Shown: positions 1 through 61,540 of the stretch, piece by piece
Numbering within the stretch: position 1 is the first letter of the stretch
Layout of the letters: every line of letters begins with the position of its first letter
Source of the DNA: Phoronis australis
Lineage: Eukaryota > Animalia > Phoronida
DNA length: 64,000 nucleotides
Direction: 5' to 3'
NCBI GenBank assembly: GCA_002633005.1
Contig: NMRA01000032.1
Location: 159,044 to 223,043 of the forward strand
Made by a program: the position numbers and the translations under genes
The notes under the pieces: model-generated
Seen by the model: the letters and a program-made list of their open reading frames with translations, nothing else
What the model was told of the DNA's origin: nothing
The model's database searches: none

Positions 1-811
1 AGTAATTTGACAGAAAACACTCACAACTTGCCCGGTTGTCTATATACTTGTACGAAACACTCTGGAAAAAATCTCTACTCATTATTTTGGACACTGGAGC
101 ATAGGCCTAAATAAGAGCATGCACGGTGAAATGTCTTTCAGTTAATACCGTAGGTGTTATAATTATAGGCGTAGTTCATGACGAGTATATCGAAGATTAT
201 ACAGAAAAAGTAATAAAGTTCTGTCGAACTCGGGAAAAAATGGAAACATTCAAGCCAAGAATAACGTACAGCAAAAGCGAGCTGTTATCGCCATGGGAAC
301 GGAGTGTGACGGGAATGAATCATCCGCGCCACAGTGCGGCGTATTGTGTGATTGGTGCGTATTATCAAAACTAAAACAATGTTAACGTATTACTCCCGAC
401 TGCTGAATTTTTGTCTGTTTTGGTGTTTTTGTACGTCAGCCTTTGACTATGCATATGCAGTAGTTCACTTTGTAAAAAAATGAAATTGATTCGCCATNTT
501 GGTACAGGAAATTGAGCCACTTTCCCATAGCATCTTAGAAGAATTCTTGTATAGGATTTCTAATACTTTTATAATGGTAGCGCGCAGCTAGCAACTGCTT
601 TCGTCTTACCGTCAGCGACTGTACTGCCACCAGTTGGGGCTTCTTGCAACTGCCGTACCCTACCTCCTGGTAAAAAGCTGGCGCGCGTGACAACCTCCCC
701 CAGCGCAAATCCTGACGATAAGACCGAGATGATTCTTGAAGTTACCAACGGGGTTTGTTGTAACAACATAAAATAGCACACGTGCTAATTTTTTACCTAT
801 TACAATTTCAG

Positions 812-972
812 GTGACTACCTGTACGTGTTTGGTGGCAGTACCGTAGAACACGGGGCGACAGTCAACACGTCAGAGTATTACGATGTTGCCTCCAAGTCG
901 TGGGTAGAGGACTTTTCACTTCCCAGGAAGAAGGGTGAGAAAACATTGATTAGGAGTGGAATAATCGGATAG
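812..972 (+). CDS. Terminal coding exon of a kelch-repeat protein (upstream exons lie left of the window)
   Basis: Acceptor tttcag at 806-811; translates (G)DYLYVFGGSTVEHGATVNTSEYYDVASKSWVEDFSLPRKKGEKTLIRSGIIG*, with kelch hallmarks LYVFGG and EYYD...W; AATAAA at 2096-2101. Confidence 0.8.
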
Positions 973-2889: not shown

Positions 2890-3330
2890 TCCTTGGTCAT
2901 GGATTTTCGAGAAGTCATAGATTTCTATTGAGGAGAAGAGATAACGTTTTCATTTTCGAACGGACTCGACTTAATCTGTGTAATCCAATGGCAATATTTT
3001 ATTATTTGCGAACCCGTTTTCTGCGTTCGCCTTTCTATATTCCAACCACTGGAAAAACGATGAAAAATAAAAGATGACCCTGTTGAGAAGACCACGACTG
3101 ACACTGCCTTTCTAACAGGTCTGACGTCTGATATCTGTGGCACCCCTCATGGCAATTTTGTCTTATTTTGCATCCGCAATGTGAATGTGACAACAGATAA
3201 CCACGATTTTTGGATGGATCTGACTACTCCTTTGACCCTCAGTGCCAAGTTTGATTTTTCACACTTGCCACTGTATATTCAGTCTTACTTCATTAACGTT
3301 GTGAAAGTATCTTTTAGGTTCAATTGTTCA
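2890..3330 (-). repeat. Eroded inverted copy of the 19660-20945 repeat family
   Basis: cattttcgaacggactcgactta (~2951) matches the reverse complement of taagtcgaatccatccgaaaatg (~20613); spurious ORF 3181-3381 resembles spurious minus-strand ORFs 19728-19931 and 20102-20356. Confidence 0.65.
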
Positions 3331-4200
3331 AATACACCGGTTGACCAACCCAGATTAGTGATCTGCACCATACCCAAATGATAAATTATACTCTGGGCTC
3401 GAGAATACCGTCTGAACACAAGCTTGAATGTCAACAGTCCTAAAGAATATTCTAGCAGATACTTGATTATTTCGAAATATATGACGCAACATAGGTCAAT
3501 GTTATACGCGTAACAGTGATGTGGAAATGGCCTAAAAAACCCTTGTTATGTACACACCATGTCGAGTTAACTACGCTCACTACCACGATCAATCAGTACA
3601 GGCCGCGCTACCCACTCGAGCATAGTCCACGGATGAATTTATAAATTCCCATTCTGTTTAAATCATGTCTTTTTCGAGCTGACTCTTTTAATGTACCGAC
3701 TGTGTTCTTTGAGCGCGAATATTTCAGTCTGCCTCCTCATATTGGCCGGTGGATGGCGCTTACGTGCAATCACAATGTCGTGTTCCACAGCAAGACCTGA
3801 CGTCTGGAATAAAAGATTCGTCGTAAGTAATGCTTGCGGCACTCGACCACCATGTACAATTTATAGTGAATAGCCTAGCACGGGCGAGGGAAATGCAGAC
3901 CGAATTACTGTTTGACACAACATCTCTAAGCCATTTTTTCAGCAATGACAGATTTGCATGGACCGCATCCTCGACATGACCCCAGTTGGACTCATTCAGA
4001 ATATCTTGAGAGGTGAACGTTGTCTGCGCATGCAGCCCGTCGTGTGAACTTTAAACTGGAGAATGGCTGACGATAAGATTGATGTTCGCATATGCACAGA
4101 TAACGCTCACCTCTGAGGACATCCGGAACATCTCGGGTATTTTTGTGAGTCTCCAATTATCTGCCCGGAGATGTGTTTCGTGTCTGCCCATGTGCCAAAT

Positions 4201-4491
4201 TCAGCCATAGCAGCCAATGGATCCGGTCAAGCGACGGATATAGTGGTGGCTGCAGCTCCCCCATTCAGAGAATGCCCTTTTAAGCCGTGGAATCACAATA
4301 CTGACCCATTGGTAAAGCCGAGCTGCACCACTGCTGACTCCCCGGATGTCTTCAATATCGAGCAGGTCGAGTATTTCGCGTACTCTCGCGACTATCTCAG
4401 GATGGAGAAAGTCAATGTCGATGCTGATGAGACGCGCGACGATTGCGTACGGACCAACAGGATTCAGCAACTTTTGGCTGTAAGACCAGTC
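4201..4491 (-). CDS. Hillarin/KY-like exon 10 (second half of dynein-MTBD-like domain; probable last exon)
   Basis: ttttcag acceptor, phase 0; DWSYSQKLL...SSGAARLYQWVSIV; stop at 4201-4203. A possible internal donor at 4305 makes the 3' end uncertain. Confidence 0.72.
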   Translation of the reverse strand, partial: DWSYSQKLLNPVGPYAIVARLISIDIDFLHPEIVARVREILDLLDIEDIRGVSSGAARLYQWVSIVIPRLKRAFSEWGSCSHHYIRRLTGSIGCYG

Positions 4492-7400
4492 CTGAAAATG
4501 TACAAATCGCACTAATCACTTTATGGAGGTTTTATCATTATATATTGTAATCGACAGCGACTCTGTTTGTAAACTTAAATGGCAGGAATTCCGTGTTACA
4601 CGGGGACTTCAGCTGTCGCTCTGACAACTGAAATGACTGTGTAAATGACGAGGCATGTGCGATCATCTTTCTCTATCATCATTTGCAACAGCTTAGTAAC
4701 GAAACGGATTAACCTGAGTTACCTCCCATGTCTGGAGTGAAGCAACTATTTTGTGGCTTGTTCTGCTGTCTCTTCGCAAAAAAATGCAAAATGTGAATTT
4801 TCAACGGTTGACTTGGAGAAGGTAGAGGTCTGCAAACATTTGAATATTCCAGAAGGCTTCTCATTATCTTTTACATTTTCAGCTTGAATTTATTATAAAT
4901 TATAATAACCTGCACCACAAAGTGACCAAATCGGAAATCGGGACCTCCATGCGGAGCCTCAGTTTTATTTGTAAAATAAAAAGATAAAATGGAGAGAACA
5001 AAATAAAATCAAACATTCAAAACCTGTCGCTGTGCAAGTCCATTTGATTGCCACTGCCATGTGATCTGTGCAATGTAGATGGAGTGTTGAAAGTACGTGT
5101 GGACCCATTATTTGAAAACTGACACGAATTTTCACGTTGACAATGTGTTGATAATTGGTTTTACACCTAGAGTCACGGAAGTTCGTATCACCTAAGAAAT
5201 TACATCTGAAGCAGAACTATTGGATACGTAAAAAACCTATCACAATGCGAAACAGAAAAGGAGTTAAATGAGAATGGAATGACAATATTCGTGCAGTTGC
5301 AGGCAGTTGTCATCGTTTATATTTTCAATGATTGTGAAAGAATTAGAAAACGATTTAAAACATTCAGGTTCAGGTGTATCACCTGTCAGCGTGAGCGCGT
5401 CAACTTGTAAATCTTATTGTTTGCTGATGATCTGGCTCTACTTGCCGAAATAGCTGTTGTAATGCAGAGATTGGTTTGTAAATTAGAAGTATAGTCTACG
5501 TAAATGGAACAAAAATTTTAGTTTTCAGAAATTGTGGTTGTTTGAGATAATACGAGCAGTGAAAGATATTTGGCAACAAATGACGTCGTAACTCAGCACA
5601 GTTATTTAGCAGTACGTTTATCAGGATGTTTTTACAAAAGTCCAAAAAATTAATTTCCGCATAAGCGTGGAAGACACTATTTGTTATAAAAAGGAAAAAA
5701 TTCGTCGACGTTCCGATGTTGCTATGGTCAAGATCATTTCACATGGCTCAGAAATATGACAAGCTCTGCAAACGTCTGCTGCAACTTGTTCAATGTATCT
5801 CAACTGTTGCAATTCGTTCAACACATCTCAACTGTGGCAACTTGTTCAACACATCTCAGCTGTTGCAACTTGTTCAACACATCTCAGCTCTTGCAACTTG
5901 TTCAACACATCTCAGCTGTTGCAACTTGTTCAAACATCTCAGCTGTTGCAACTTGTTCAACACATCTCAGCTGTTGCAACTTGTTCAACACATCTCAGCT
6001 GTTGTAACTTGTTAATCACATCTCAGCTGTTGCATGGGGAGAACGTGAAGGAACAAACATAAAAGTTGAGAGTTTTACAATACCCGTATAAGAGATATGA
6101 AGGCCAAGACGCATACATGTACATGTATGCTTTGGAATTCAACCTACAATGTAGTGACATAGGGGCGAAACAATGGGCAAACAAAATTTCCTCCCAGTCG
6201 TTAGATGTGTAGAAACTAGTTAAATCGGTTTTTTGTCAGAATTCCACATTATGTATTTCGATAGTCTCCTACTTCGACCTACTTTGGCGAAACTTAGATG
6301 CGAAAGTCTCTTATGATTTTTAAAGATAGACGTACATGGATTTAGCCGTAAATGAGAGAATATGCTTATGTTGCTATATGAATTAAATAGAAGCAGATCG
6401 CCATTTGTTAATGTCTAATATCTGACGAAGCAAGAAGGAGGTGCCTTGGTGATCAACGAGTAATAGCATAATTAAGAGATTCATTCTTGCAGACACGAAA
6501 CAAGACAACATTAAGAGGTGTTGCCTAGTCCATTGCACGTACTAAGAAATTGAGAAAAATATATCTACACTTTATGGTTGAGCTCAGTTAATCTGCTATC
6601 TGCATTTAATCTGTGTAATACGGTGCCGAGGTTTGATTACCGTAATAAACAAACACATCCATGATGAAATAATTGTTGCTGCGCTTCAGTAGAGTTAGCT
6701 TTATACTGCGCCATCTTCAGCTGTTGGGGACAATTATTACAATAACTTGAATTTTCTAAAAACTTTAATTATTAAAACATCACTAAATAGAAATTATTTT
6801 TTAAACTGAAAACATAAACTTTCCAAAAGTGTCTTGGAAGAAGCTTTTTGAAAACATTTCCGCAAACTTGAGTTACACAACTTAAATTGGTTCCAGAAAA
6901 CGTGTCCAAAATATTTAAGTTTTGCCAAAGTTTCCGTGATCAAAAACTTAATTTAAGCTGTGAATGCTTAATTTCATATTTGTAAAGGGAATGTTTTGAG
7001 CTAAAAGATTGAACTGCAATATGTACATGACATCGTTCAAGAATCAATGGTTTATTTAAATGTGCACCAGCCTCTGGCTTACTTACATTGGAAGTTACAC
7101 GTAGACTAAAGGGCATTGTACACAGATTTTAGAAATTATTTTCTACATCACCGCTTCAGAAAAAGTTCAGAATGCCGACGTGAGCATGCTTCGCCCTCAT
7201 CAAACCATTGGCAAAACTTGCTAAATGAAAGCCCAATTACGACTTTAATTGAACGAAAGTTACATTCTTCTCTGTAACGTAAACAACCGACGCCCAATAC
7301 AAAAAGTAACGTATCAGGGAAATTCGACTCCAGAACTTCAGAGCAGATAAAACACTGTCACATCGACGACTGAGAATTGTGAAGACAATAGTGAAGACAG

Positions 7401-10400
7401 TGAAGTTGCTACTTTTACGTGTACATGGTATACAATGACTCCTCTTTGCACAGGCCGGAGAAGAAAGGCAAGGTGGGGGAAGGCAATTGTCAGACTTTTT
7501 CAATTCTGCAGCAGGGAAGGCCTATTCCCGCATAGAGCAACCGATGCAGCGGGGTTTCAGAAAGTGTACTCTTCATGGAGTTCAGTTGAAGCACATCACA
7601 TTACGCACATACAAATCTTACCATGAAACAAAATGGTGAATGAAAGCCGTGAATGGGACAATTGGTTTGACAAGTAAACTCGCCCGGCAGGCAGGATGAG
7701 ATTAATAAGTTAATTAAATATACTACACTGGATTGGAAATCAATCGATTTCAATCATCAACAACATTGAGAGAGCTCCTGAACAAGAATTGATTGGAAAG
7801 GTCTGCCAGTTATGTGATTTTCTAAAGTGTGCTTCTGTGCTACGACAGCCGTTCCTTGTGAGGAAATTTTCGAAACCGATTAAAAGGGATAAAAACTCAT
7901 TTGTTTTTACTTTGCAGTTTTTCGAGAAACTAATCAGACGGCAATGTATTCTACAAGCATGCAATACTCACCCTGGTGTTACGTTCCCCTTCGCTAAGGA
8001 GAAGCAATGTGGCGACCACGACATCACGGACACAGGCAGGCGGGTCGCGCAGGCCCCTGATCTCCATCAATTCGGCCTCGGAGGCTTTCATTAATTCTTT
8101 GTTAAGATTGTTAATACGCTGCAAACTCTCAATGAGGGCGTTGGCCTGAAATCGTGTTCACACAAAAATGTTGAGGATGTGTGCACAAGCTAATCTTTAA
8201 TGGGGTCTTCAAGCATTCAGGTGAATGATTTGTAAAATTACTAGAATCACAGTAACGACCGTTAACTATTTCGCGGAGCTGTTGTTTGAAAGTCCCCCGC
8301 GAGCTGCACAAGCGCACTCCACTCACTTACCTCGAGTAACTCCAAATTGAATTGTTCTTTGAACTCGCTCTTTTCAAGAATAACAACGCATTTCTGTATA
8401 ACCTCAGGACTCTTCTGATCCATAGCATGAAGCAATTCTGGAAACATTTTGAGAGTGCCATCATTGTAGAAAACAGTCAGACAATCACTTGAGTTAAACA
8501 GTTCATCAACACGTAAGGTAGGTATAAATGACAGTACTGGGCAAGATAAACCTTTGTTTTTGGACAACTTGAAACCACTGCTAAATTAAACCTGTATCCA
8601 ATGCCTGCGTGCTGGCGTCAAAATTGACGCAGAAATTCCGAGCGTGAGGTCAGAAATGACATAATCTTGCTAATTCCAGAAAACGTGTAAGAAATAACTT
8701 CACGTAAAACATAGCGTTTTATAATCCCGAGTTCAGAATTAGATTTTTAAGTAAAGACGGGAGTCCAGCGTCCAAACGTTTACCTGAGTGTAACTTTTGG
8801 GAAGCATTGAATAGCATGGACTGAAAACTATCCCTGACGCAATTCAATGTGGTATACGGCAATTATTAAGTATGACGTGCTTGTCTTGATGAACGGAAGC
8901 GAATGCGAAAATGCTTCGGTCCCAGTCAAGACTATGAGTTTATGGAGACACGTCATTGTCCAATATTTTCTTAACTTTGGTGCTCATCAAGTCCATAACC
9001 TTTAACGTCCAAAGCTAATGTCACATGACCATCCTAAAGGCAAACGTGACTGATTATCCCTACCATTTAGGGTCTTGAGTAGGATCAGCACCTTTTCTGC
9101 TGATGCGCATTCGCCGAGGTCAGGCACTTTATGCTTGCGGTGCTCGATCATCGCTTGTTTAATGGCCGTCTCGTCTCCCAGCTTTGTAGCCACCTCCAGA
9201 GCACGGCGAAGCACAACAAACTCTTCGTCTGAGACAGCAAATGTTGAAAGTTGGAAAATTTCACAAATATTAGGTCAAGAAACATTTAATGGAAGATCAT
9301 AATCCTGTAAAATACATAGAACACAAATTAAATAAAATTAAGCACTTACCGGTAGATATTTGTATTCCCCCAAGATCCATTTTGTCGCGCAGGTCGTCGA
9401 GAGTATGCAACTGTTTCATAAAGAGAAGAAGTTATATTAAATGTGTGTCATGTAATTGTTAACTGAACACGTGTCCATACGAATCACCTACAGGTTTCAT
9501 GGCTTAATCGAACAATGGAACTGTGTATTAAAATACCCAAGCCGAAACGAGTGAATACTGCCCACTGACCTCTGCTCGCAGTTGATCGTGTATGCAGTTC
9601 CTCTCGTTAAGCATTCTCTCAGCCTCGGCGCGCATGCGCTGTGCCTCTTCTCCAAGCCTTAACGCTTCCGTCTCGTCCTTAAGCATATCCACCAGTTGTT
9701 TCATGATGTTCTCTGTCCTCGCCATGGACACGTTCTGCTCTTCCCAGTTATATACGATGTGGTCCTGCATGTCCAGAGTCTCGCGCATCTGCAGCAGGTA
9801 CTTGAGATACTGGGTCAGCTGCTCCGCGTGTTCCACCCGGCGCTCCTCCGACTCGTCAATGCGGTTCTGACAATCCTCGATGCGCACATCAAAGAGCTGT
9901 GCACTCTCAGGGATGTGCAGTTTGAAGTGCTCAAACTGGCTGACTTGGTTCTCCAGAATGCGCCGTAGCTCGTCCAAGTTCTCCGCCAACACCGTCGACT
10001 CCTCGTGGATTTTGATGCGGTCACGCTCAATCTCACGCAACTTCTTTATTCGCCTACCCACCTCCTCCTGCAGCTTTTCGCGCACCGCTTGGTTGTCATT
10101 GAACGCCTTTAGCACTGCGTCCTCTCTCATGTGTTTATTCTTGCCCTCTAGCTTGTGGTAGTCTTGCAGTAGTTGGCGAGCGTCCGTGTCTAGCTTCCGC
10201 CGCTTAATGATGTCCTGGTAGCCATGGATGATCTCTTTCTTCTTGTACAAGATCTCGTCGTACATCACGCGGACGCGGTCGAAGTCAGCGATCTGCTCGT
10301 TGATCTCCATCTTTATCTCACCGAATTCTTCCAACGCCGTTAACTTCTTGCTGGTGGCAAAGAGAAGACTTTCTTTCTGCCGTTGCTGTTCAAGGACCTC

Positions 10401-13400
10401 TTCAAGTTTGTTGAGTTTTGTTTCCAGCTCCTTGTGTTCTTTCTGCAAGAGCTTTATCTTATTCTCTTTCTTTTTGTCCACGAGACGCATGGTTCTACCC
10501 TGTAGTCGTTCCATCTCGTCCCACACTTCTGCGGTGACCACCTTAAAATGTTGCGCAATTTACATTAACTAAACAACCAATCAGGCAAATAACTAATATT
10601 TAATACTGGTGCCGTGCACCACTGTAGCGTCTTCGTGACGGTATAGCTGCTTCGACCGACTAACTGTAGTCATTTCTCAAAGAGTTTTACTAGCCGTCGG
10701 TGCAGTATCTAAGCAGATTATAAGCATTTTGGAAAGTACACATACCCCATATCTGAAGCAGCTTTTACCATATTCCCCAAAAACCAGCAACATCTTTTAA
10801 AATTTGCAAATACCGTTGCTTCTTTTAAAATGTATAGTAACCCTATGAGGTAATTAGTTGTCGGGTTTACCTGATACACAAGCAGCGTGTGATACTCCTC
10901 CATGTCAGCGCCGCAACAGGAGACCTTGAGGTCCGTCTTACCCTCACTAGTCTGAACATGACCTCTCCATACACTGTCCTCACCCTTTTGAAGATCCGAC
11001 CACACGTCTTCCTCTGCAACAGTTACGTTTGACGCTTGGGGCACCTTAACTTCGAACTTTACCGACGTTAGAGGTGGCAACTGCCTCGTGTTTGGCGTGA
11101 TTAACACATGGTCGATACCCCAGCTTGACATCGGTTTTGGGAAGGGTGTGGCACCAGGCTTGGGCCAATCCACCTGGATCACAGAATTGTACAGCATCGG
11201 AAGGATGCCTTCCGCCTCCACAGGTTTTCCGTGAAGTTTCAGGTGATACTGGCCAATGTCGCGAAAACGGAGAAAAATGGTCGTTTCTTCGATTTTATGC
11301 TGAAAGAATACGTAGTCAGTGGCGGATGTTGGGGGAAGGCCTTCTTCGTTCATCTTTAACATGGTTGCCTGGTACATCATAGGTGATTTTGTGGAAATCA
11401 CTATTTTCATTTCACCGACGTCCGGCGCGCTTAAAAAAGGAGCCAAATCAGTCTCGGTGACCAGGCCTTTAAAAAGCTCCGTGGCCCCGAGACCACCTTT
11501 TTTAATTAAGGGATACGGGGTCTTGTATTCACACGCTTGCTCGGCTTCTACAAGATAATCACAAACGCTTTTAAAGTGTTCGCTAGCTGCACCCCTAAGT
11601 CTCCTTGCGTATATCCCAAACCCGTACATACCTTCCCTCGGGCACTTCATACTAAATATCACCACGTCGTCTTCTATTCTGTAGACGATGAAGCGCTTCA
11701 TATCGTCTTCGCACATTTCATCATGCTTGCATGTATACATAAATTCGAGAGGTGTTTCCATTTCAAATCGTATCTCACACGTACCGTCTTTGGCGGCTTG
11801 TACGACTCCTCTCTTGTGCGACAATGGGGTCATTCCCATGGCAATAGAGCCAGGACCAGGACCCCACTCTCTACGGTCACTGATGGGCATTGCTCGCAGA
11901 TCTGAGGTTGCCTTTTCACAATTAATGACGTACCTCAGCAGCTCAAGGTTGTAACCGCTCTGTGCATCCACGGTATTTCCGTACAATTCAAGCTTGTAAA
12001 GCCCTACCTTCGGAAATATAATCTTAATGCGAAGTACGTCGTCTCGTCTCTCGCGAAACATGTACCTATCCAACTTCAGGTCACCAAATGCGTCCGCTTC
12101 GTCAGCAACCGCATATAGCAGATGCCGGAAGCGAAGAACCTTATCAGTGGGCAAGCCTAACTGAAGCTCAAAGTCCCCATGACTCACTTCAACTAGACAA
12201 GTCTCGTGGTTTATCACTTTCATGTCCAGGTTGAAAAAGCCCGGGCGCAGATACGCCAAGTCATTAAACTCTTCTAGAGTGACTTGACGAGCAAGAAGCT
12301 GCCACCGTGGGTCTTCGGGAAGGTGCGTGTAAATAAACTCAACAGGATCTGTCAAAAAATAAAACTCATTGTATGCATACTGTACTGACAGGTCGTTGTT
12401 GTCGCGCCTTGGTTGAGTTGGTTTAACCACTGGTCCTCCTAATCCGTAGACGAGAGCCCAGTCGTCCACTGTATCTTCTCCTTCAACGTGGCTTGAAGCC
12501 CAGTGAGGATCAATAAGTCGCCAAATGTTGTCGATGAGAACTGCTAGCCAACCTCCAATATAGTCATTCGTGTTTTCCGCGATATTGTCGCCGGGGGAGT
12601 AGTTAACACCTTTTACTATTCCTTCTATTCTTACTGATATAACGTTGGCAGCCCTGAAAAGTTAGAAAGGAAAGTGTTTTAACTATAAAATATTGAATTG
12701 ACCCCTCAATGCATAATACATTGTCGCTCTCCTTTCATTTCCATTTTACAAGTAAAACTCGAAGAAGAAAAAGTGTAAAGAGACGAAATGCCCAATTTTA
12801 GACGTTTTATTTGTAAAAAAACGACATCCTGAGCATGTTTTCTTTTTCCTACGCGAATGTTGAATTTCTTATCAGGGAAGTACACTATGGAAAACTCACT
12901 TGAAGAGCTCACTCAGCAGCGTGTCGTAGTACGATGTCACACCATTCTGTATTTTCCATAAGCAGTACATGGGAGTGTCTCTCTGCGGTATTGTCCGGCG
13001 GAACTTGTATTTGCTCAGGTCCTGGGCTGTCACCCAGCGAAATAGCACTCGAACCTTCTCCATTTCAGTCTGCGCCTTCTGCGTGAGGTAGTGCGCGAGT
13101 TCCTCGTAACTCTTTCGGGCATGTTCCATGGGTGTCTACAAAAGCCAAACATAGAGAGCTCATACAGTTGCCAATTCACTAGATGTCATTTTATGTAGCG
13201 TGTGAGAAAGACAGGGGCCAGGGATTGACTAAATATGATTGGAAATCTTCCCAAATAGGGGACGGAAATCTTCGCCCAACCAGTTTTCTGGGGTTTGTTG
13301 GTCGCAACATAATCGGCCTATGTGATAATTTCCCACGACCCTTGCAATTTTAATCGTGTAAATATTGACATCACGAAAAGTCTACCAAACCAATTGTCCC

Positions 13401-16400
13401 GCGATCTCGACTGCCATAATGAAGACTTCGACATTGTGTTCTTCACTAACGATCTAAACGTTTTTTTTATCGTCGAGGTATTAGAGAATACCTGGTTTCA
13501 CGAGTACAACTCGAACGCACTAGAATCGATGGAAGGACACGCCCCTTGTCAGATCCTACAAAGAGAGTGTCCCTCATACTACGAGGCACATCACGGGTCT
13601 GAAACTTCTTGCGAGCAAGGAACATTCACTGATAATAACCATGGCGTCGCTCTGACAAGACAAGGAGGTGCAGTCAAACGTCATCAAAGAGTAATTGTCA
13701 CAGAACTGATTATTCTACAAAGTCTGTGCAATTACTACACTAGCCTTTTCCTATGCAAGCGCTGATTCCAAAATCTGGGCTTGCTATGGCCATGAACACA
13801 TACACCGGTCAATGATTTTGGAGAAGTGGAGTGAAAATATAGAGACCGAACTTGTTGGAGCCAAGATTGCCGATGCTCTGGAATGTTCTAATTGTCAGTT
13901 CATACCGCCAAGGCCTCAGACAATGGGGCTGAGTGATGTAACGGAGGCCAACCACTGGTAAATAATGTGGGCCAGATCTGCTCCTGGAGGAATGCCCAAG
14001 AGACCGATGGCTTTGACCAGTACGCCATCTCATTGAAGGATTTGAATTAAATCTTTCATGTGAAGGCCGCCACAGCCTGGGACTAGAAATGGGTTGAGAA
14101 TACGAAGCGCAAGTTACGAAGATTCATGGATACTTCTCTCTTAATTCGCGACAAATTTAGATCTACATTAAAAAAGTGTATAACAAACGTTAACTCAGGC
14201 CGCAGAAGGAATTGTCACTCAGACATTCCGCAGGAGCTCATCTGACGCACAACACCCCCCCACTTAAGGAACCTTTATCTATTGTACCTCATAATCCATG
14301 TACACCCTGTCCATGGTTGTGAGTGACTACTAGGAGCCCTTACGGTATATATCGATGGGGAGTGGTATGAGTTCCGTCCTGTGATAACTGTTTGGTGGTC
14401 AGCTCTTTATTACCTTAATTGCAAACTGGTCCAGCTCCTGATAGTCATCAATGTTGAACACTTCTTTCTTCAGGCTCGGTGTTGGGAATGGATGAGGCAT
14501 CAAGTTCTCGTCAAGTTCCACTTCTAAGTTGCGCGCCGTGTGCACGTTCTGTCGCTCTTGAAGGACAATGTGTGTGGGGAATTCATATGGCTTAGGCAGC
14601 TTCTGACTGACTATGAACGGGTTTTTCACCTTGGCCGCCTTGGGCACTCGTGTGGTCAGTGCTAGGCGGTTCGCCTTGAACGATAAGTAGAGGTGTGTGT
14701 AGACATGATGCATAATTGCATGCACATCCCAACTCAAGAGAATTCCAAAGTTTCAACCAGATCAAGTGCAATTTGAGTTGGATGAATTACATGAATTTAC
14801 GTTTTACTGGATATGTTTCAAAAACTAAGCAAACGTAATACACTGGAGAGCATTTGGTAATTAAAATTGCTAATTCTCCTAACATTAAGCGAAGAATACA
14901 CGGTCACTCAGCCTTCGTTGTCACTCCTTCTTCAAGCTCGCCCGTTCACGACAGCTTGTAAACAAAGCCGCAGAAACTGAGCATAGTACACTGTAGACTG
15001 CTGTGGTAACTACAATAGCGTTCTGTTTTGTTGTTTTGTAGTGTAAAAATAACAGTAGTAATATCCAGTTGAATTCAGTCGAAAACTTTTATTTATATGA
15101 CACATTACCGATAAATCAACAGGATTTGTCTGCCTACAATCCGGGACCGAAGTCAAAGCCAAAAACGCATCAAAGTTGGTCAATTTAGTCATACCGTTAT
15201 TATGAATGGCAGTCACTACTGGGTGAAACGGGGGTAAACCGAAAATTGGCTACAATAAATAAATATCTATGAAATACAGAAAACCAGGAAAACAGGTGTT
15301 TAGAATACAATCTCAAATATCGTCTGCTCACCTGCCATTCCACGGAAATAAAAGCTAACTTTGATTTGGGGTTCAGCTTTGACGAATTCGAATGGGTAGA
15401 ACTGAATTTGGAAGAAATGTCACAGCTTCAGGTAGCCAGTGAGAGATATGTGGACCAAGTTGACGAAGTTCATAGAATCGAAAAGAAATGAAAACAACAA
15501 GAAAAACGCGAGTGACTGTTGAAACCTGGCTTTTCGGTGTCGTTGTGTTCATACGGGTATTGGCCAAACAGGAAGTAATTAAAGGAGAATGCCACCAAAA
15601 TCAACGTATTTTGTATCAATTTAGATCGAGTAGTTCCACTCGACAACAGCAAGTTCAACTATTTTATCTGAAATTAACCAATGAAGTCATTAGCTTATAA
15701 CACAATCTGTTCATCAGTTCACAACGCGCTTACTGGTGTCACTTTATCGCTTGACTTCATCGCTTTACACCAATAAATCATCAAAATTCAATGCAAAACC
15801 CTTAAAATACATTCCGTTTTTACACACACGACTTGTTTTATTTCGCTGTTACGGATTCGTAGAAATTTTGAACGTTCCGTAGCCTACAGATTTCGGTAGG
15901 CCAACTTCAGTAGGCCTACTGAGGTCTGTCGCGGGAAGTTTGGATCTGTTCGGTGATAAATTAGAATTATTTTTCCGTGAAATACAGACAGGAGAGTATA
16001 TCCGTGTATTGTAATATTTGGTTAGTAGTGCTTTATCGGTTCTAAAGAAACAAAACGCTCGTTGTAACCCAGTGGCTCGGACCCCGATTAGGCCTGTCGC
16101 CGGCGACCCCCCATCTCGAACATAAATCAGCCGGGTTAGTTGGCTGCCAAAGTTGAAAATTAAACTCCCAGTCACGAAATGACTGGACTAGTGACTCAAA
16201 GAAATAATGTGCACGTGAATATTCTGGCAAAACGCCGCAAAATTGCAAATCTACTTATCTGCCGAGGCCGCGAAGCCCCTTAGTTCCAAAAACCGTAGCG
16301 GGCAAAAGGTGTACAATAACAATGATTTGAATAATGTATATACATGTCGTATATATCTAAATAAGGATTTCATTAACGTCTGACCAAAGCATTCAAAAGC

Positions 16401-17318
16401 AATTTATTGTTTCAAAGTAGCTTTCTGTCTGCAAACACTGAATTAACGAGTTAGTTTTAGTGCATCTGAAGCCGGTAACGCAGTGTGGTATATTCATTGT
16501 TGGTTTCTCAAAACATTTGCACTCACGAACACTCCAAAGGCATTGTAAATTGTATCTACTAAGGCAGTTTTAAGAGACACTTTGTTTCAGTTATATTCAA
16601 CATTGGTTAGAGCGAGAATAATTCCACACTTGGTATTAACGGCATGCTTTTCATTCTTAACTGCCGCGAACGACTTCCCAAGCATTTCGGATTCTCGAGA
16701 AAATCAGAAAAGCGATATACCCGATTTTCTCGCAGCTTCATGGTTCGTCACAATTAAGCGGGAACGATACGTGGCACACACTCAGCTGAAGAACCACTGA
16801 CGTCGCCGCGTCGTGTACTCACCTTCCTCACAGGTTAACACAACGCTTACCTCTAGGCGAGGTGTGATCTACCGTATGCGAGGTGATGTGGATATAGACC
16901 GATTAAGATGGTAAAAACAACGAAATGAATCGGGTGGCATTCTCCTTTAAGACTCAACGATGATCTTAGTATGTGGTATCAATAAGTTTGCTGCCGTGAG
17001 TATTTTCACGCGGCCTTCGGCCTCATGAGAATGCTCACACCGCACATCAACCTCGGCTAATAACACACTCATATAAAACACGTGTAGTTTAACGTATATT
17101 TAGTCTCTTTTTCTGCACAGAATTCAAGCGAATCGCTTCACCTCTTCACTTATAGTTTATTTTGATAAAATCACCTCGCCGCGTATAATAGTAGTGACAC
17201 GTTGCAAGAAGGGTGTCTCTTCTTTTAAAATTCTGCCTGTGTACAACCCTCAACGTTAACCTACCTGGGCTTTCGCCGGAGCGATTTCCAGCTTCATTTT
17301 GGAAAATTTGCAGCCCAT
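4201..17318 (-). CDS. Hillarin/KY (kyphoscoliosis peptidase)-family transglutaminase-like protein, ~1367 aa, 10 coding exons
   Basis: Phase-consistent GT-AG model: 17318-17265, 14674-14414, 13135-12900, 12653-10871, 10541-9570, 9410-9350, 9228-9064, 8437-8331, 8145-7972, 4491-4201. Family motifs EKVRVLFRWVTAQDL, W.AVLID..WRLIDPHW, YNEFYFLTDPVEFIYTHLP.DPRWQLL; three Ig-like repeats (GLYKLELYG, GMYGFGIYA, GQYHLKLHG). Confidence 0.85.
5200..6655 (+). mobile_element. Decayed non-LTR retrotransposon (CR1/L2-like) ORF2 3' fragment
   Basis: ILLFADDLALLAE at 5411 (RT YADD-box variant), KILVFRN near 5511, NERICLCCYMN*IEADRHLL at ~6351-6410 (C-terminal Cys/His motif), aataaacaaac tail at ~6644; many stops and frameshifts. 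Confidence 0.75.
5776..6033. repeat. 28-bp minisatellite, ~9 copies (ttgttcaacacatctcagctgttgcaac)
   Basis: Directly visible; period 28 (e.g. 5841 vs 5869); no spacers. Confidence 0.95.
7972..8145 (-). CDS. Hillarin/KY-like exon 9 (first half of dynein-MTBD-like domain)
   Basis: 174 nt, ANALIESLQRINNLNKELMKASEAELMEIRGLRDPPACVRDVVVATLLLLSEGERNTR; tttcag acceptor, AGG/GTGAGT donor. Not in the supplied ORF track. Confidence 0.82.
8331..8437 (-). CDS. Hillarin/KY-like exon 8
   Basis: 107 nt, phase 1-0, tttccag acceptor, GAG/GTAAGT donor. Confidence 0.8.
9064..9228 (-). CDS. Hillarin/KY-like exon 7
   Basis: 165 nt, phase 1-1, (D)EEFVVLRRALEVATKLGDETAIKQAM...LLKTLN. Confidence 0.8.
9350..9410 (-). 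CDS. Hillarin/KY-like exon 6
   Basis: 61 nt LHTLDDLRDKMDLGGIQIST, aaacag acceptor, GTAAGT donor, phase 0-1. Confidence 0.8.
9570..10541 (-). CDS. Hillarin/KY-like exon 5 (long coiled coil)
   Basis: 972 nt, phase 0-0, E/K/Q/R/L-rich heptad-like sequence; GAG/GTCAGT donor. Confidence 0.88.
10871..12653 (-). CDS. Hillarin/KY-like exon 4 (transglutaminase-like core plus Ig-like repeats)
   Basis: 1783 nt open exon overlapping ORF 10718-12469; ttttcag acceptor, CAG/GTAAAC donor. Confidence 0.92.
12900..13135 (-). CDS. Hillarin/KY-like exon 3 (start of transglutaminase-like domain)
   Basis: 236 nt, ttgtag acceptor, GTGAGT donor; EKVRVLFRWVTAQDL motif. Confidence 0.9.
14414..14674 (-). CDS. Hillarin/KY-like exon 2
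   Basis: 261 nt, ttcaag acceptor, AAG/GTAATA donor; ends PHPFPTPSLKKEVFNIDDYQELDQFAIK, typical of the segment preceding the KY/hillarin core. Confidence 0.8.
16996..17038. repeat. Imperfect hairpin with a cTTCGg loop, probably a repeat relic
   Basis: gtgagtattttcacgcggcc-ttc-ggcctcatgagaatgctcac; 20-nt arms with 4 mismatches. Confidence 0.55.
17265..17318 (-). CDS. Hillarin/KY-like exon 1 (MGCKFSKMKLEIAPAKAQ)
   Basis: ATG at 17318, 18 codons, donor CAG/GTAGGT, phase 0 matches the next exon; MGCxxS acylation motif. Confidence 0.7.
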
Positions 17319-18762
17319 TTTTGTCACGGCATGTTTTCAGCTAGGAACTTAGCTATAGTGGCGAAGACTTCCGTTATGTGAAAATGATCTCTCATCGGAG
17401 AGCAAAACAAGCATCAAATCCGGTTGTATTGAACATTCTGCTGTTTTAATTCACTTGAAACATCAGCCACACTATTGTCCCTGTTGAAAATCAACCCATA
17501 TTTTTTTGTAAAAACTAAACGATATACGCACACTTTAGATCACGTTCTTTGCTGAAATCACACTCAATCTCACGATTGTTGATGCTGATATCGCAAATAG
17601 GTTATTCAGGCTTGATCACGAAATGACGGCAAGGACCTTAGATGATATCGAATGAAGCCTATTCACTCTGACGCTCATTTAGTACGGATCCAAAATGGGC
17701 AGCACGAACGATATATGGAGCACTGACCGTCAAAGAAGACGCACGGACACAAATTGTCAAAGCGGCCACAATTGTCTCACCTTCTGAACTATGACATTTT
17801 CTAGTCATCACGGGTGGTTGAAATTATCACAATTGGTCCAGTCTAACAAGGTTTCCTTGTGCCAATTTGGGCCTGAGTGGGGCATACACAAGACACCGAC
17901 CCCGAGATATTAAGACCGGGCTGAGACCAGAAGCACGACGTTACCGTAGTTGAGACTTTTTTGATTTCATCATCGCGCCACCATGAAGTTAGAGTATGCA
18001 TCGTAACGTAGAACGATCGTAATAAGTACACCCAGAACATGTACTTGCTGTAAACAAAAGACCATTCTGAAAACAGTCAATGGGTACGCGCCGAATACTA
18101 CAGATATTGTTTTATTTACCTGTTTCAGTTTTCAGAAACTCCCTACGCCGTTATCCTTGAGACGACGAAAGTCACCTAAACAAAGTTGAAGCGAGTATCG
18201 TAGGCCCCTAGATATCACTGACCTCATCCCCATCCCCATCCAAAGCTCTAGCGTAAAGTAACAAGAGTATGACGTACATGTGTTGCAGCTGCTTCTGCTT
18301 GTGACGCACGCATTATTTACGTGTTGTTCGGGACATACATGTATGTCGAAATATGACTGCCTAGAAATCGGACCTGACATTCTAGGTTAATGCTCTGGAG
18401 GGGGGTCCAGGGCAGTTGGGTCATGCCCCTTGCATGGTTGCGCCCGTATTTTATGTTGGAAATCCCCTGTACTAGGCTGAACAGATTTTGAAATCAACCA
18501 ATTACCACCAGAATTGAGGGGCAATGGAGATAGGTAATGTTAAGAGAGGTGGGAGCTATTGTGGACCAAAACTTGCAGATCAAGTTCCCGATTATTTAGC
18601 ATTCTCACAATGGATTTTGTATACTGGTGAAAAAAAGTTAATACCGAAAGTACTGTATGTGCTTCCCACTTAAGTGTATTTTTACATTATAAGACTCGCT
18701 GTGGTGGCGGATTGATAAACTGATGTACATACTCTCCGGCAACACTTGGGCGTCCATTTTTA

Positions 18763-18921
18763 CCGTAATCGTTCGGGTTAACGCCCATGCTCAGTTAACC
18801 GCCCATCCCCGACTTTAGGTGGATTTTCGATTTAACCGCCCACTGCTCGGTTAACCGCCCTCCCCCGATTTTTTGGATTCGCCCATTTAACCGCCCAGGG
18901 CGTTAACCCGAACGATTACGG
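18763..18921. mobile_element. 159-bp MITE, Tc1/mariner-type, TA target-site duplication
   Basis: Perfect 24-bp TIRs ccgtaatcgttcgggttaacgccc / gggcgttaacccgaacgattacgg flanked by TA (18761-62, 18922-23); internal ttaaccgccc repeats. Confidence 0.9.
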
Positions 18922-19659
18922 TAAGTCTACCACAAAACCACAGAACACATAAACACGCATGTTTATTTCCTGAAATAACTTCCACTCATCTGACCACAAC
19001 TGCTTTATTTTCGTTATATAAAGGAATACAATTCTCTCACTTTTGTGAATAAGCCATACAATACGACTACCGTTATTTCACTTCCTGGCATGACGGGAAG
19101 CAGTGAACAAGCTGGATAACTCCCATGAAAAAACAGTCAATGTCAAATTAAGTCAAACATTTCTAATTAAAGCAGATTCGGGACTTTTGCTAAGCCTAAA
19201 ATGCTGTTCAAGCCCAGTCCTGAAATACACGGAGTGTTTATAAAATATATATACTTAAAAAATAACTCAAATCTATTTGGTAAATGGAAATGAAAAATAA
19301 AAATGGTTGTCACTGAAACACAAGCATGATAAGAATAAGTCCCATAGAACAGATTACGCCATCTAGTGTAGGTGACAACATACCCTCCACTTACTATTAT
19401 TACTAAACGCATTTGCCAACAGAACCCATGATTCACCAAACAAAAAAGTCGAGAAAATGTAAAATTAAACAAATCTTCCCTAGATCATGGACACCTACCA
19501 AGCATTTGAAGGAAATCAGTTGATCACACAACCTCTTCTCATAACTGTCTAGGGTCTATGGAACACAACTGGAGTATCACAGACTTTAACAAGAGCTTCA
19601 TGTATCTAGTTCAAAACATCAGCTTCGGTGCAAGTTAAAAAACCTAAGACTCTGGAATA

Positions 19660-22288: not shown

Positions 22289-25200
22289 CTACAAAACAAA
22301 CCTTTCATTGTAAGTTCTATAACACCCGTTGACAATGGGTCAAACAGTTGTTGAATGCACTCAGCAACCAATTATTAACTCAACCGAAAGGTCAAAACTT
22401 GGATGAAATAAGCTACACAACTTTTGAAACATTAACATTCTATGTTTGCACTAGTATTTATTTATGATTTATTTTATTTTTTATCTTGATTGTGATATTT
22501 ACAATGGGGGTAACCCTGATAGCGATATTTAAAATGAGGGTAACCCTACCAGTTTTCACTGCTTTCCATGGGGGCCCTTGGTAAAAACATACAAGAAGTA
22601 TAAACAGACTTACAAATACAAGAAGTACATGATTGTATAAACAGACTTACAAAACAAGAAGTATTTTACAAATACAAGAAGTATAAACAGACTTACAAAC
22701 ACAAGAAGTATAAACAGACTTACAAACACAAGAAGTATTAACAAACTTAAAAATATGAAAGACAAGATATAAATGATCAATGACGAATATGAAACTGATC
22801 TGAAAAGACAGATGAAACAAAACTAATAATAAATAAACAATAAATAGAAGATAATAATAAAAGTATAAGAAAAATGACATGATTAAATAAAAATAATTAC
22901 TAGATAAATAATAAATAGTAACATAACCCCCAAAAATTTTTGAACTTCATCAATATAAGCACCCTTATTTACAGCTCAATGGACAATGTAAAGTGGACAT
23001 TAATACTTACGAGGGTCGTTCAATAAGTTCTCAGCCTCACCAAGAAAACAGGGACACAGGTTAAATTTTTCACACCATAGTGAAATTTCATCTTTGATAA
23101 CAGTACTGCGTTCATGCTGAATTAGTACGGTTAGCTGCTGCTAGGTGACGCTGCTTTAAAAAAGCAGACGACAACACATTTAGCAGCATGGAGATAACGG
23201 AGATGAGAACTGTCATAAGGTATTTGAGTAAAAAGGGAATGAAACCAAAAGATATTCATGAAGAGATGCGAAAAAGACTCGGAACAGACTCCCCGAGCTA
23301 CTCAACAGTAAAAAAGAGGTAAGCTTGTTTCAAGAGGGGTAGAGAAAGCGTTGAAGATGACCCTCGTCCAGGACGTCCCAAATTATCGACTTCCAGTGAA
23401 AATGTGCAGAAAATTCATGCAATGAATAAGAAAGACAGGCGAATGACTGTTCAACATCTGGCAAACACTGTTGGCATCATCAATGGGTCCAACTCTAAAA
23501 TTTTGAGTGAAGATTTGGACATGAGTAAGCAGAGTGCACAATGGGTGCCAAGAATGTTAACTCAGGATAAGAAAATGAGCAGAATGCAAATTTCAAACTT
23601 GGTTCTTCTAGGAAGATTCCAAGCAGATCCAGCCAAATTTTCGAGAAGACCTGTAACCCAGGATGAGACAAGTGTCCACCACTTTGACCCGCAATCAAAA
23701 CAACAAAGTAAACAATGGAAGCACGTGGGTTCCACAAGCCCGAGAAAGTTCAAGTTGGATGCCTCTGCAAGCAAAATTTTGGCCTCTGTGTTCTGGGACA
23801 GCGAAGGTACTCTGATGATCGACTACTTAGAACGAGGACACACAGTTACTGTGAATTACTATGCATCACTTTTGGAAAAACTCAAAAAAGCAATCAAGAA
23901 AAAGAGACGCGGGAAGTTTCAGGATGGAGTGCTGTTGCTGCAAGACAACGCACCTGCCCATACTGTCTAAGTTGCGGTGGCTGAAGCAACTAGATGTGGC
24001 TTTGAAATCCTTCCACACCCCACCTATTCTCCAGACCTGGCACCGTCTGATTTTCATTTGTTTCCACATTTGAAGGCCTACCTGCGTGGATGCCAGTATG
24101 TGAGCGATAATGATGTCATGAGTGCAGTGGAGGAGTATTTTGAGGGGCTCGACAAAAGTTTCTTCAGGCATTGCAAAACTGGAGCACAGATGGAAGAAAT
24201 GCATTGATGTGACGGGAGATTATTTTGAAAAATAAAAGTCAAAATTAGTTGCTATCGTGTTGTTTTCTGGGTGAGGCTGAGAACTTATTGGACGACCCTC
24301 ATAATAGGCTTTATGCATTCCTTACTTTATTTATCTCAGTTATATCTCAACATCTCTGCAGACAGAGCTGTTGAAAACTATTGAATGAAATTAATAATTT
24401 GTTAACATGACAATCATTAAACCACATTACTCACCACAGTGCAACTGTACCCTGTTCGAATGCCAGTTTTTCATTGGCTAATCTTTCCAGTTCACTCAAT
24501 GAAATGTCGGATTTCACTCGCAAGGCGTGAACACCAAGACACTCCAGCTCCACAGTCATCATGTTGCTATATCTTGGCACTGGTCTGGGTTTTTTAGCAC
24601 TGACATCTGTGAGTATTTTAGATGTGGTCTCCGCTGAGGATTTTGGAGGAATTCCTGGACGACGTGGCGGAAGGGGCTTTGGTGGTGGGAGTGGCTTTGA
24701 CCCAGTTGAAGACAGTACAACTGGCTTTGATTGACTTTTTGTCTTTGGTGGTCTTGGTGGTGGTTCACTGGGAGCATCGTCAGTAATGACTATTGAAGGC
24801 GGCTTCCTGTCCGGCAGCGGATGTCGATTGGTAGCTGTTAACGGTTTTGCATTGCCAAATCTACCTTGCTTGCTTGAAGCATCCGATAATTGACTGACAG
24901 GAGTGACAGTTTTACCCAGTGCGACTTGATTGGCCAGTTTCTCCTTTAATTCATGCATAGCATTGCCTTCCGAGGATGGTTTCCGCGGTAAATCGGGCGA
25001 GGCTAGCGCGGGACTGGACCGTACTTCGTCACGCCTTTTGAGTAAAGGAGAATTTGGTAAAGATCTAGATACTGTCTTGACTTGTCCAGCTTCTAACAAC
25101 TGCAATAAAATGAGCACGCAAAATAGTGTAAAATGCCGTAATTCAGCCGTCAGCGCCATATTTGTCGTTTTGTTCTGAAATTTCCAACGCTACCTCAAAC

Positions 25201-61000: not shown

Positions 61001-61540
61001 GAATTTGATGTTTCATCTACTTTCTATGCTCTTCTTCAGGTGACGAGGCTGAAGGCCACGTGGTCATCTCTGCGCCAGAACTACACAAAGAGCGCGTTCA
61101 TGTTCGACTCGAAACTGAAGAACCTGATGAAGTCACTGAATGAAGGCAGTGGTAGTTTGCCCTTGCAGAATATAAGCATACCTTACGTTATACCACTTGT
61201 GCAGTTGATGGAGCGAACATCACCTGACGAGATCACCCACTGGGAGAAAAATGACGTCGATCTCGGCATAGACAATGTGTTGGCACATTTAGATATTGCG
61301 CGCATCGTTGCCGAGCAGTGCGGATTGTACAGGGTCAAAGGTCAAGAGATTGTTGACGGGTTCAGACCAGAGTCGCGCGTGTTAGACATTTTCCGCACAG
61401 AACTGCATCTGAAACTTCTCTGGGGGTCGAAAGGAGCAGGGGTGAACTGTAAGGATAGATACGATAAGTTTGTGCAGTTGTTGAATGTGTTGTCAGAGAA
61501 GGTTGAGCCAGTAAATATGAATATTGGGACAGAGTTGTGA
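45916..61540 (+). CDS. BCAR3: BCAR3/SH2D3C (NSP-family) adaptor, SAM + SH2 + Cdc25/RasGEF-like, ~881 aa
   Basis: Phase-consistent model: 45916-46014, 48065-48173, 49994-50027, 54511-54578, 54881-54944, 55433-56067, 57921-58031, 58718-59573, 60130-60298, 61040-61540. Motifs LEKEL...DIRSHAWFHGAISR, FLVRES, RTGSDP, PPENKPLE, SGLELITLPQGEQLRKDMLER, LGNLFAF, FRTELHLKLLWGSKGA. Confidence 0.93.
48065..48173 (+). CDS. BCAR3: BCAR3-like exon (SAM C-half)
   Basis: LLLYIKEVELRDLGVVNSAHRARMISSLSILRAKME; AAG/GTAAGG donor. Confidence 0.85.
48200..48380. repeat. Degenerate tandem repeat (gaattatgggaa)
   Basis: Motif recurs about six times. Confidence 0.6.
49994..50027 (+). CDS. BCAR3: BCAR3-like 34-nt exon
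   Basis: ttttgctttccag acceptor, AAG/GTAAGT donor; supplies the required phase 1 to 2 change. Confidence 0.75.
50235..50377. mobile_element. Short non-autonomous DNA transposon relic (Harbinger/hAT-like ends)
   Basis: caggggcggatccagg at the left end and an imperfect complement ccctctaaatctgccacg at the right. Confidence 0.55.
54511..54578 (+). CDS. BCAR3: BCAR3-like candidate cassette exon A
   Basis: 68 nt, phase 2-1, QTGGDCLWRFPLIRRNSLSEGT. Confidence 0.5.
54881..54944 (+). CDS. BCAR3: BCAR3-like candidate cassette exon B
   Basis: 64 nt, phase 1-2, (D)HPELHHVPTPDGLSRRFSVM. Confidence 0.55.
55433..56067 (+). CDS. BCAR3: BCAR3-like SH2 exon
   Basis: WFHG...GDFLVRESTSQPGDFVLT...LHFVI; ATG/GTAAGT donor. 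Confidence 0.95.
56150..56411 (-). mobile_element. tRNA-derived SINE
   Basis: Minus strand: A box TGGCTCAGTGG (56401-56391) and B-box-like GATTCAAATCC (56355-56345); no complete cloverleaf; 3' limit approximate. Confidence 0.6.
57921..58031 (+). CDS. BCAR3: BCAR3-like linker exon
   Basis: 111 nt, phase 1-1, ends LQLRT(G), joining SDPVL of the next exon. Confidence 0.8.
58718..59573 (+). CDS. BCAR3: BCAR3-like exon (Tyr/Pro-rich linker plus start of GEF-like domain)
   Basis: 856 nt overlapping ORF 58834-59577. Confidence 0.93.
59936..60053. repeat. Intronic inverted repeat, ~36-bp arms (MITE-like)
   Basis: aataccccagtcaagtaaacacatgagaacagtctgc ... gcagactgttcttatgtgttacttgactggagtatt. Confidence 0.8.
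60130..60298 (+). CDS. BCAR3: BCAR3-like GEF-like domain exon
   Basis: YNCLKMFVVTSLLTCNKVQDRSRLLQQWIEVATEMRSSLGNLFAFATIMDALGSSQ. Confidence 0.92.
61040..61540 (+). CDS. BCAR3: BCAR3-like last coding exon
   Basis: VTRLKATWSSLRQNYT...LLWGSKGA...SEKVEPVNMNIGTEL*; AATAAA candidates at 62261 and later. Confidence 0.93.
   Translation: MTRLKATWSSLRQNYTKSAFMFDSKLKNLMKSLNEGSGSLPLQNISIPYVIPLVQLMERTSPDEITHWEKNDVDLGIDNVLAHLDIARIVAEQCGLYRVKGQEIVDGFRPESRVLDIFRTELHLKLLWGSKGAGVNCKDRYDKFVQLLNVLSEKVEPVNMNIGTEL

Follow-up and report, generated by a model that had tools for sequence, protein, structure and literature searches.

Can the domain with which dynein binds microtubules occur in animals on a protein that has no motor? 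The microtubule-binding domain (MTBD) is normally examined only as the tip of dynein, where its affinity is controlled by ATP by way of the stalk. The question is raised by a gene on the minus strand of a 64,000-nucleotide stretch of the genome of the phoronid Phoronis australis (GenBank assembly GCA_002633005.1, contig NMRA01000032.1, positions 159,044 to 223,043), hereafter called the window, in whose coordinates all positions are given. A first-pass annotation, made from the sequence alone, had spliced exons 8145-7972 and 4491-4201 in phase 0, had seen in the product a motif-by-motif match to the MTBD of the dynein stalk without an AAA ring, and had proposed that this domain was moved onto a hillarin/KY scaffold. 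We find that the gene has 11 exons and 1379 codons (ATG at 17318, stop at 3663) and encodes a hillarin/KY-like protein. Its tail is almost certainly a homologue of the dynein stalk-tip MTBD, a relationship that for the window protein itself is transitive through a family profile.

Homology of the tail to the dynein stalk tip

Taken singly, neither of the two exons matched a Pfam family, and the second had no match in the Protein Data Bank (PDB); the seven weak PDB matches of the first (8145-7972) were all dyneins (E 0.086-2). Protein searches with single exons found none among 304 candidates in a word-based search, and no usable match in the Atlas. A KY exon, searched among long proteins, gave two matches from 4567 candidates, one of them a scallop protein with a similar tail, and this scallop tail alone identified DNAH6 in the PDB (E 4.8e-4). 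Against a family profile built from 55 tails, the window protein scored 98.7 bits over residues 1172-1337, ungapped, and the spliced tail 105.5 bits, compared to at most 5.9 bits for shuffled versions (891 of 1000 reported) and 1.6 bits for the reversed sequence.

The profile comparisons that had been suggested as a check gave a clear result for the PDB and a partial one for Pfam. A 34-row family alignment matched 69 PDB chains at E<=0.01, and the best 60 of these 69 were either dynein heavy chains or constructs of their stalks, at E values down to 4.9e-12; two chains of more than 4,500 residues in the list bear other labels. Pfam MT (PF12777) was matched by 18 of the 34 rows at E<=1 (best E 3.4e-5), but the first row scored 17.7 bits, short of the 24 bits set as curated cut-off; the lack of annotation of the tail is thereby explained. 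DNAH6, yeast cytoplasmic dynein and dynein-2 score alike against the family alignment, so that no dynein class stands out as the donor.

The structural comparison was made on the tail of the nearest relative, P0048, which is 35% identical to that of the window protein and stands in for it. Its AlphaFold model (predicted local distance difference test, pLDDT, 97.4) shows the six-helix fold, H1 to H6, between the coiled-coil helices CC1 and CC2. Foldseek placed dynein stalks first, with template-modeling (TM) scores of 0.64/0.73 and a root-mean-square deviation (rmsd) of 2.3 to 6rzb. In a wide structural search, two mouse dynein stalks reached Z 17.3 (5ayh; rmsd 3.4, 136 residues) and 17.2, with the best clearly unrelated folds at Z 7.7 or less. 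An Atlas model of the family gave TM 0.79-0.84 to dynein stalk clusters. Identity to dynein in the structural alignments is 12-20%.

Transcript evidence and the integrity of the gene model

The 8145-7972 and 4491 exons have AG/GT splice ends on the minus strand and the translation first written for them. Their phase 0 junction (7972/4491) is spanned by 54 RNA sequencing reads in run X1 and 51 in run X2. In two of the three runs, reads on the strand expected of a minus-strand gene support the full set of ten junctions between the first exon (17495-17265) and the last coding exon (from 3803). Those upstream of 7972/4491, which include the junctions of the KY exons and of the first exon, have 31-132 reads each, so that the link to the upstream gene was found as well. 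Exon 9410-9350 and the acceptor at 9228 were defined by the reads.

The 3' end of the first-pass model had to be revised in part. Acceptor 4491 stands, but the main donor of exon 10 is 4306, joined to 3803 in 97 (X1) and 112 (X2) reads. The reading frame ends at 4201 only in a minor form, in which donor 4111 is joined to 3803 (12 and 9 reads, out of totals of 109 and 121 for the two junctions into 3803). As donor 4306 replaces the read-through to 4201, the residues past the final Trp of the main protein differ from those originally given. The stop of the minor form (4203-4201) lies 90 bases before the last junction, which would make it a possible target of nonsense-mediated decay. Run X3 has zero reads on the exons of this gene, yet contains spliced reads of the neighboring gene, so expression differs between samples. 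Two differences from the assembly, probably alleles, were seen: 55 of 149 and 12 of 85 reads lack 7 bases at 3618 in the 3' untranslated region (UTR), and every read has another base at 3709, by which a Lys close to the C-terminus becomes Arg.

Convergence or artefact, whether helices that match by chance, exons wrongly joined in the model or a piece of a defunct dynein gene, is largely refuted and in our view hardly tenable. One could cite for it the failure of either exon alone to reach significance against Pfam or PDB, the low identity to dynein in the structural alignments, and the Pfam MT score under the curated cut-off for the member shown. Yet junction reads tie the tail to the KY exons and run through to a stop, the profile match is dynein-specific among its best 60 of 69 hits, Z values near 17 lie far above those of unrelated folds, the same architecture recurs in dozens of independently annotated proteins, and a Walker A motif is missing from the model.

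Protein architecture

An MGCKFS start opens the protein and is followed by a transglutaminase-like core, KY-type immunoglobulin (Ig) domains, a predicted coiled coil and a helical region; then comes the tail module (residues 1172-1337), with a short basic stretch at the C-terminus. The KY-type Ig domains are recognized by Pfam in exon 4 (PF23265, E 5.4e-58). PF01841 is weak on the split exon (E 0.025) and above cut-off in relatives, and the domain order is that of hillarin/KY. At the presumed positions of the catalytic triad, placed by a sequence motif, the window protein has Thr172 (Cys site), Gly217 (His site) and a retained Asp232, and hence no Cys-His-Asp triad; of 69 cores with the tail, at least 67 lack the His. 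The 324 residues of exon 5 have a hydrophobic period of 3.5, contain 41% E/K/R/Q and a single Pro, and are predicted to form a long coiled coil.

An MG start is found in 57 of 82 tail-bearing proteins. MGCKFS fits the rule for myristoylation/palmitoylation signals (Gly2, a small residue at position 6), and is a likely candidate for such a signal.

The absence of an AAA ring was confirmed: there is no Walker A motif in the 1379-residue model and no AAA Pfam family among the exons scanned, and the reading frame ends at a read-supported stop 46 codons past the domain. A long CC1/CC2 stalk able to shift registry is lacking too, as the dynein match spans some 30 residues of CC1, and P0048, modelled at full length, has a final helix of 23 residues and a CC1 that emerges from a helical unit. 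That the two helical units before the domain repeat each other in sequence was considered and rejected (340, 151 and 154 of 500 shuffles scored equally high).

An animal family with a mobile module

The first-pass annotation pointed to similar tails in mollusc KY-like proteins and suspected an unannotated family; this proved right, and the family spreads far beyond molluscs. A search with the scallop tail gave 55 matches from 3468 candidates, in bivalves, gastropods, Lingula, annelids, Branchiostoma and cnidarians. An exhaustive search found the tail in 31 of the best 150 KY relatives, the named ones adding Owenia, Helobdella, Macrostomum and several amphioxus paralogues. Members on the KY scaffold come from molluscs, a brachiopod, annelids, a flatworm and amphioxus; cnidarian members are EF-hand/coiled-coil proteins. 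No vertebrate, arthropod or nematode names were among the matches of these searches, which were restricted by length and shared words.

Four matches without a KY part, from Porites, Nematostella, Sanderia and one more, carry the module behind a coiled coil, with EF-hands by Pfam in the Porites protein. Like the other members, these cnidarian proteins (P0054, P0056-P0058, one of them named 'trichohyalin') have the 172-residue module, at 213-220 bits on the profile; unlike the window protein, they have no KY part and no MG start, with EF-hands in their place. The two helices before CC1 are conserved together with the domain, cnidarian EF-hand proteins included. The KY scaffold proposed for the window protein is thus real (PF23265), but a direct local graft of dynein onto KY is not what the distribution suggests: the same tail on a non-KY scaffold in cnidarians points to a mobile module of two helices, short CC1 and MTBD, which was likely present before the cnidarian/bilaterian split. 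Mapped on a tree of KY cores, the tail requires nine changes, six of them forced by strong branches, and a single origin of the KY-tail fusion is unsupported. This unrooted tree has 58 cores; redundant mollusc orthologues among P0004-P0043 were dropped except for eight, and several tail-less rows may be partial models.

The pearl-oyster (Pinctada) member P0155 carries three tandem copies of the module on a KY scaffold. The amphioxus member P0055 contains an inserted CARD-type Pfam entry (PF00619). Models of an oomycete Atlas cluster with Impact_N match the module at TM 0.72.

Our literature search returned no account of the tail family or of a KY-MTBD fusion, most subscription papers and the radial-spoke structure papers, which may already mention the fold, lying beyond its reach. 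InterPro or Gene3D may already tag such tails. The module is a known domain on a new scaffold, and the family is undescribed in the literature searched. The term 'MTBD-like', as it appears in PMC12366701, refers to an unrelated TTLL motif.

Tubulin contacts and function of the tail

We tentatively favor, somewhat short of an even chance, a reading in which the window protein is a motor-less scaffold of 1379 residues that acts as a passive membrane-to-microtubule tether through its MTBD homologue, with binding that is likely weak in this copy, if it occurs at all. The MG..S start would be lipidated and hold the N-terminus at the membrane. The transglutaminase-like core without Cys and His, together with the Ig domains, could be a binding platform, for which the inactive transglutaminase domain of Cyk3 offers a model (PMC3718969), and the 324-residue coiled coil would serve as a spacer. 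The tail would be a foot of fixed affinity, because with no AAA ring and only short CC1/CC2, ATP could not switch the registry of a stalk. For dynein, affinity is reported to track a ring-driven CC1/CC2 registry (PMC6629372); in the absence of the ring, it may be set by the helices packed on CC1. Docking would take place at dynein's alpha-/beta-tubulin site, through the invariant H1 Glu and the H1 Arg. A ciliary or cortical place of action is a guess, though the best solved relative of the KY half, Chlamydomonas FAP246, hints at a ciliary setting.

Six salt bridges to tubulin have been described for yeast dynein (PMC7042235). The key pair of the MTBD is given as the H1 Glu, which pairs with alpha-tubulin R402 (PMC7042235, PMC4298687), and the H6 Arg, R3201 in yeast, reported as highly conserved and required for strong binding (PMC4298687). 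We scored the positions of yeast E3122, K3117, R3124, R3152, R3159 and R3201, on H1, H3 and H6, as mapped via the alignment of the family with PDB chains. The H1 Glu is kept in all 83 family domains and in the window copy; the R3124 position is K/R in 77 of the 83 and Arg in the window copy. When a slack of one position is allowed, all six contacts are kept in 46 of the 83 domains. Even DNAH6, a genuine axonemal dynein, keeps only four of the six strictly, as read by eye from the alignment.

Several observations weigh against a microtubule tether. Strictly scored, the family domains keep two to four of the six contacts and none keeps more. The H6 Arg position is occupied by Asp in 56 of the 83 domains and by Gly in the window copy, with Arg/Lys at the preceding residue in 70 of the 83; two further contacts are likewise displaced by one position across the family. 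The window copy retains two contacts strictly and three with slack, and its core charge of -4 is tied for the lowest among 84 (family median +3). The invariant H1 Glu could be structural, and the six-helix fold was predicted on P0048, at 35% identity, and not on the window protein. A radial-spoke chain (7jtk_C, Z 12.5, a value in the tool's ambiguous range) suggests that the fold can sit in a non-motor complex, not necessarily bound to the lattice. FAP246 may lead its list only because few KY-like proteins have been solved, and the partners described for hillarin relatives, at cleavage furrows, are septins and Rho instead of microtubules (PMC3718969).

The substitutions at the contacts also fit redeployment of a dynein-derived domain for protein-protein interaction, without microtubule binding, the conserved GK-G-(K/R) loop and RR motif forming a new partner surface. 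We consider this possible but doubtful. The Asp at the H6 Arg position has a counterpart in the K3117 position, which is Gln in 46 of the 83 domains (Glu in the window copy), and family-specific basic residues at profile positions 113, 116, 121 and 122 are conserved in 71-76 of the 83. The co-conservation of the two pre-CC1 helices with the domain, also in the cnidarian EF-hand proteins, and the radial-spoke chain that shares the fold are in line with such a role, and dynein's own MTBD can bind a protein partner, as in the light chain 1 complex (6l4p). What a partner surface leaves unaccounted for is that, on dynein's tubulin face, H1 keeps its Glu throughout the family and its basic residue almost throughout, and that most members have basic residues adjoining the other contacts.

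Alternatively, the family binds microtubules and the window paralogue, in a divergent branch, no longer does so, its tail being a folded spacer or serving another partner; this seems to us quite improbable. The window tail groups with P0091, P0132, P0128, P0062 and P0100-P0102, with moderate support (Shimodaira-Hasegawa-like approximate likelihood ratio test, SH-aLRT, 85) and long branches; four of the five family domains with three or fewer contacts lie in this group, and the lowest net charge fits a loss of binding. A degenerating tail is less readily reconciled with an intact frame, good expression, an ungapped profile match and the retention of Glu1241, Arg1243, Pro-Pro, both Trp and Arg1321. 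The window copy has, moreover, Lys1278 in mid-H3, where Dictyostelium dynein is reported to carry substitute basic residues (PMC7042235), and its basic C-terminal tail could add affinity.

At the four contacts other than the H1 Glu and H1 Arg, most members, but not the window copy, have a basic residue no more than one position away, and the alignments suggest that the family is a fair candidate for microtubule binding and the window copy a weak one. The motif-by-motif match first proposed for the tail accordingly holds for the structural residues but not for tubulin contacts, four of the six yeast contact residues being missing in the window copy, and microtubule binding does not follow from it.

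Extended to the family, the tether reading becomes bolder and, as a whole, unlikely. An ancient animal family, from cnidarians to amphioxus, would provide a motor-free dynein foot of fixed affinity by which microtubules, perhaps those of cilia or the cortex, are anchored to membranes through the lattice site of dynein, in competition with dynein and kinesin, with paralogues from strong to weak and calcium control in cnidarians; with the radial-spoke and Toxoplasma chains discussed below, the MTBD would be a general microtubule-reading module.

The MTBD has been studied in isolation by fusion to an artificial coiled coil (PMC6629372). A natural family in which the domain stands on a short helical base of its own, and in which contacts have been lost to different degrees, offers a ready series for questions of motor-free affinity, among them whether the site can be recognized by the H1 Glu alone. 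Dozens of invertebrate proteins labelled 'uncharacterized' gain a first clue to function from it, and the hillarin/KY scaffolds, which until now have been associated with septins, Rho and muscle, would be linked to microtubules. Should microtubule binding be absent, the domain remains a clear instance of a reused motor part.

Gene structure and genomic context

Table 1. Exons of the KY-type gene in the window and the protein parts that they encode.
Feature	Position	Strand	Remarks
First exon	17265..17495	-	ATG 17318 after an in-frame stop; starts MGCKFS; junction 17265/14674 in 64 + 31 reads; molecule end 17495
Exon 2	14414..14674	-	Residues 19-105, N-terminal region; RNA reads
Exon 3	12900..13135	-	Residues 106-184, first half of transglutaminase-like core; Pfam Transglut_core E 0.025, under cut-off
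Exon 4	10871..12653	-	Residues 184-778, remaining transglutaminase-like core and KY-type Ig-like domains; PF23265 E 5.4e-58, 3 stretches
Exon 5	9570..10541	-	Residues 779-1102, predicted long coiled coil
Exon 6	9350..9410	-	Residues 1103-1123; junctions 92-108 reads per run
Exon 7	9064..9228	-	Residues 1123-1178, helical region preceding module; RNA reads
Exon 8	8331..8437	-	Residues 1178-1213, helices opening the conserved tail module; RNA reads
Exon 9	7972..8145	-	Residues 1214-1271: CC1-like helix, H1 (Glu1241, Arg1243), Pro-Pro, H2 of MTBD-like domain
Exon 10	4306..4491	-	Residues 1272-1333: H3 (Trp1273) to H6, CC2 start (Trp1333)
Exon 10, minor extension	4111..4305	-	Alternative donor 4111; stop 4203-4201; RNA reads
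Last coding exon	3663..3803	-	Residues 1334-1379: short CC2-like stretch and basic tail; stop ends 3663, then 3' UTR

The 3.5-kb intron that splits the MTBD-like domain contains, by eye, a tandem array at about 5780-6040 with a unit of about 28 bases. Dispersed repeats at 15579-17000 and 18760-18923 attract reads on both strands in all runs, with many mismatches and loose ends. The upstream neighbor (34720-19600, minus strand) has weak tetratricopeptide-repeat matches and spliced reads in all three runs, and its layout may resemble that of p67phox/NOXA1; within one of its introns lies a mariner-type transposase remnant (23323-24207, plus strand; Pfam Transposase_1, E 5.3e-23). A gene at 47765-61540 (plus strand), which has an SH2 domain (E 1.5e-17) and weakly matches SAM, may resemble BCAR3/SH2D3C. 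A Kelch-motif exon at 772-972 (plus strand, E 2e-7) is part of a gene that converges on the KY-type gene.

Comparison with known systems

With the dynein stalk tip (the middle of PF12777; PDB 3err, 5ayh, 6rzb, 6kio, 8i3j) the tail shares the order CC1-H1...H6-CC2 and the fold, residues 31-172 of the P0048 model aligning with mouse dynein 3263-3401 at Z 17.3. The shared residues are E-I-R/K, Pro, both Trp, the H6 Ser, the H1 Glu and the H1 basic residue, and the best sequence match is DNAH6. In contrast to dynein, the family tail has no AAA ring, linker or long stalk, and its CC1 is preceded by a two-helix unit; in contrast to DNAH6, it is without the CC1 proline in the alignments. The domain itself differs by replacement of the H6 Arg, a short conserved insertion after H3, the lack of an axonemal flap in the alignments shown, and a score under the Pfam cut-off.

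The upstream half is shared with the hillarin/KY/LTD-1/Cyk3 scaffolds (PF01841 and PF23265), as a core without catalytic Cys/His followed by KY-type Ig domains. Hillarin and Cyk3 carry a LIM or SH3 domain; unlike these, the window protein starts MG..S and, past the point at which the last Ig domain usually ends, has a coiled coil, helices and the MTBD-like domain. The best solved match of the KY half is FAP246 of the C1b arm of the ciliary central apparatus of Chlamydomonas (PDB 7n6g/7sqc; profile E 6.9e-15, Foldseek E 1.8e-15). FAP246 (7n6g_6E) contains a KY/hillarin-type transglutaminase-like core, to which the match is confined, the tail not being included. It has been described as a central-apparatus protein with guanylate kinase and EF-hand domains, its KY-type core going unnamed in that account (PMC9113940).

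Two further motor-less chains resemble the family fold, at Z values that fall in the tool's ambiguous range for helical folds: a radial-spoke chain (7jtk_C/7jrj_I, residues 440-583; Z 12.5, rmsd 3.6 over 138 residues), which we take to be RSP2, and 9ya2_L of Toxoplasma, a microtubule-bound non-motor chain (Z 9.7, rmsd 3.2 over 121 residues), whose 162 modelled residues and their range point to ICMAP2. Axonemal chains 9fqr_Xl (Z 10.4) and 9e5c_2e (Z 8.0) also match the MTBD-like model. In the main text of the Toxoplasma intraconoidal-microtubule paper the term 'MTBD' does not occur (PMC12819142). The radial-spoke and Toxoplasma chains differ from the family in having 12% identity, in standing outside the best 60 of 69 sequence matches and in their other scaffolds; and ICMAP2 sits as a dimer between protofilaments.

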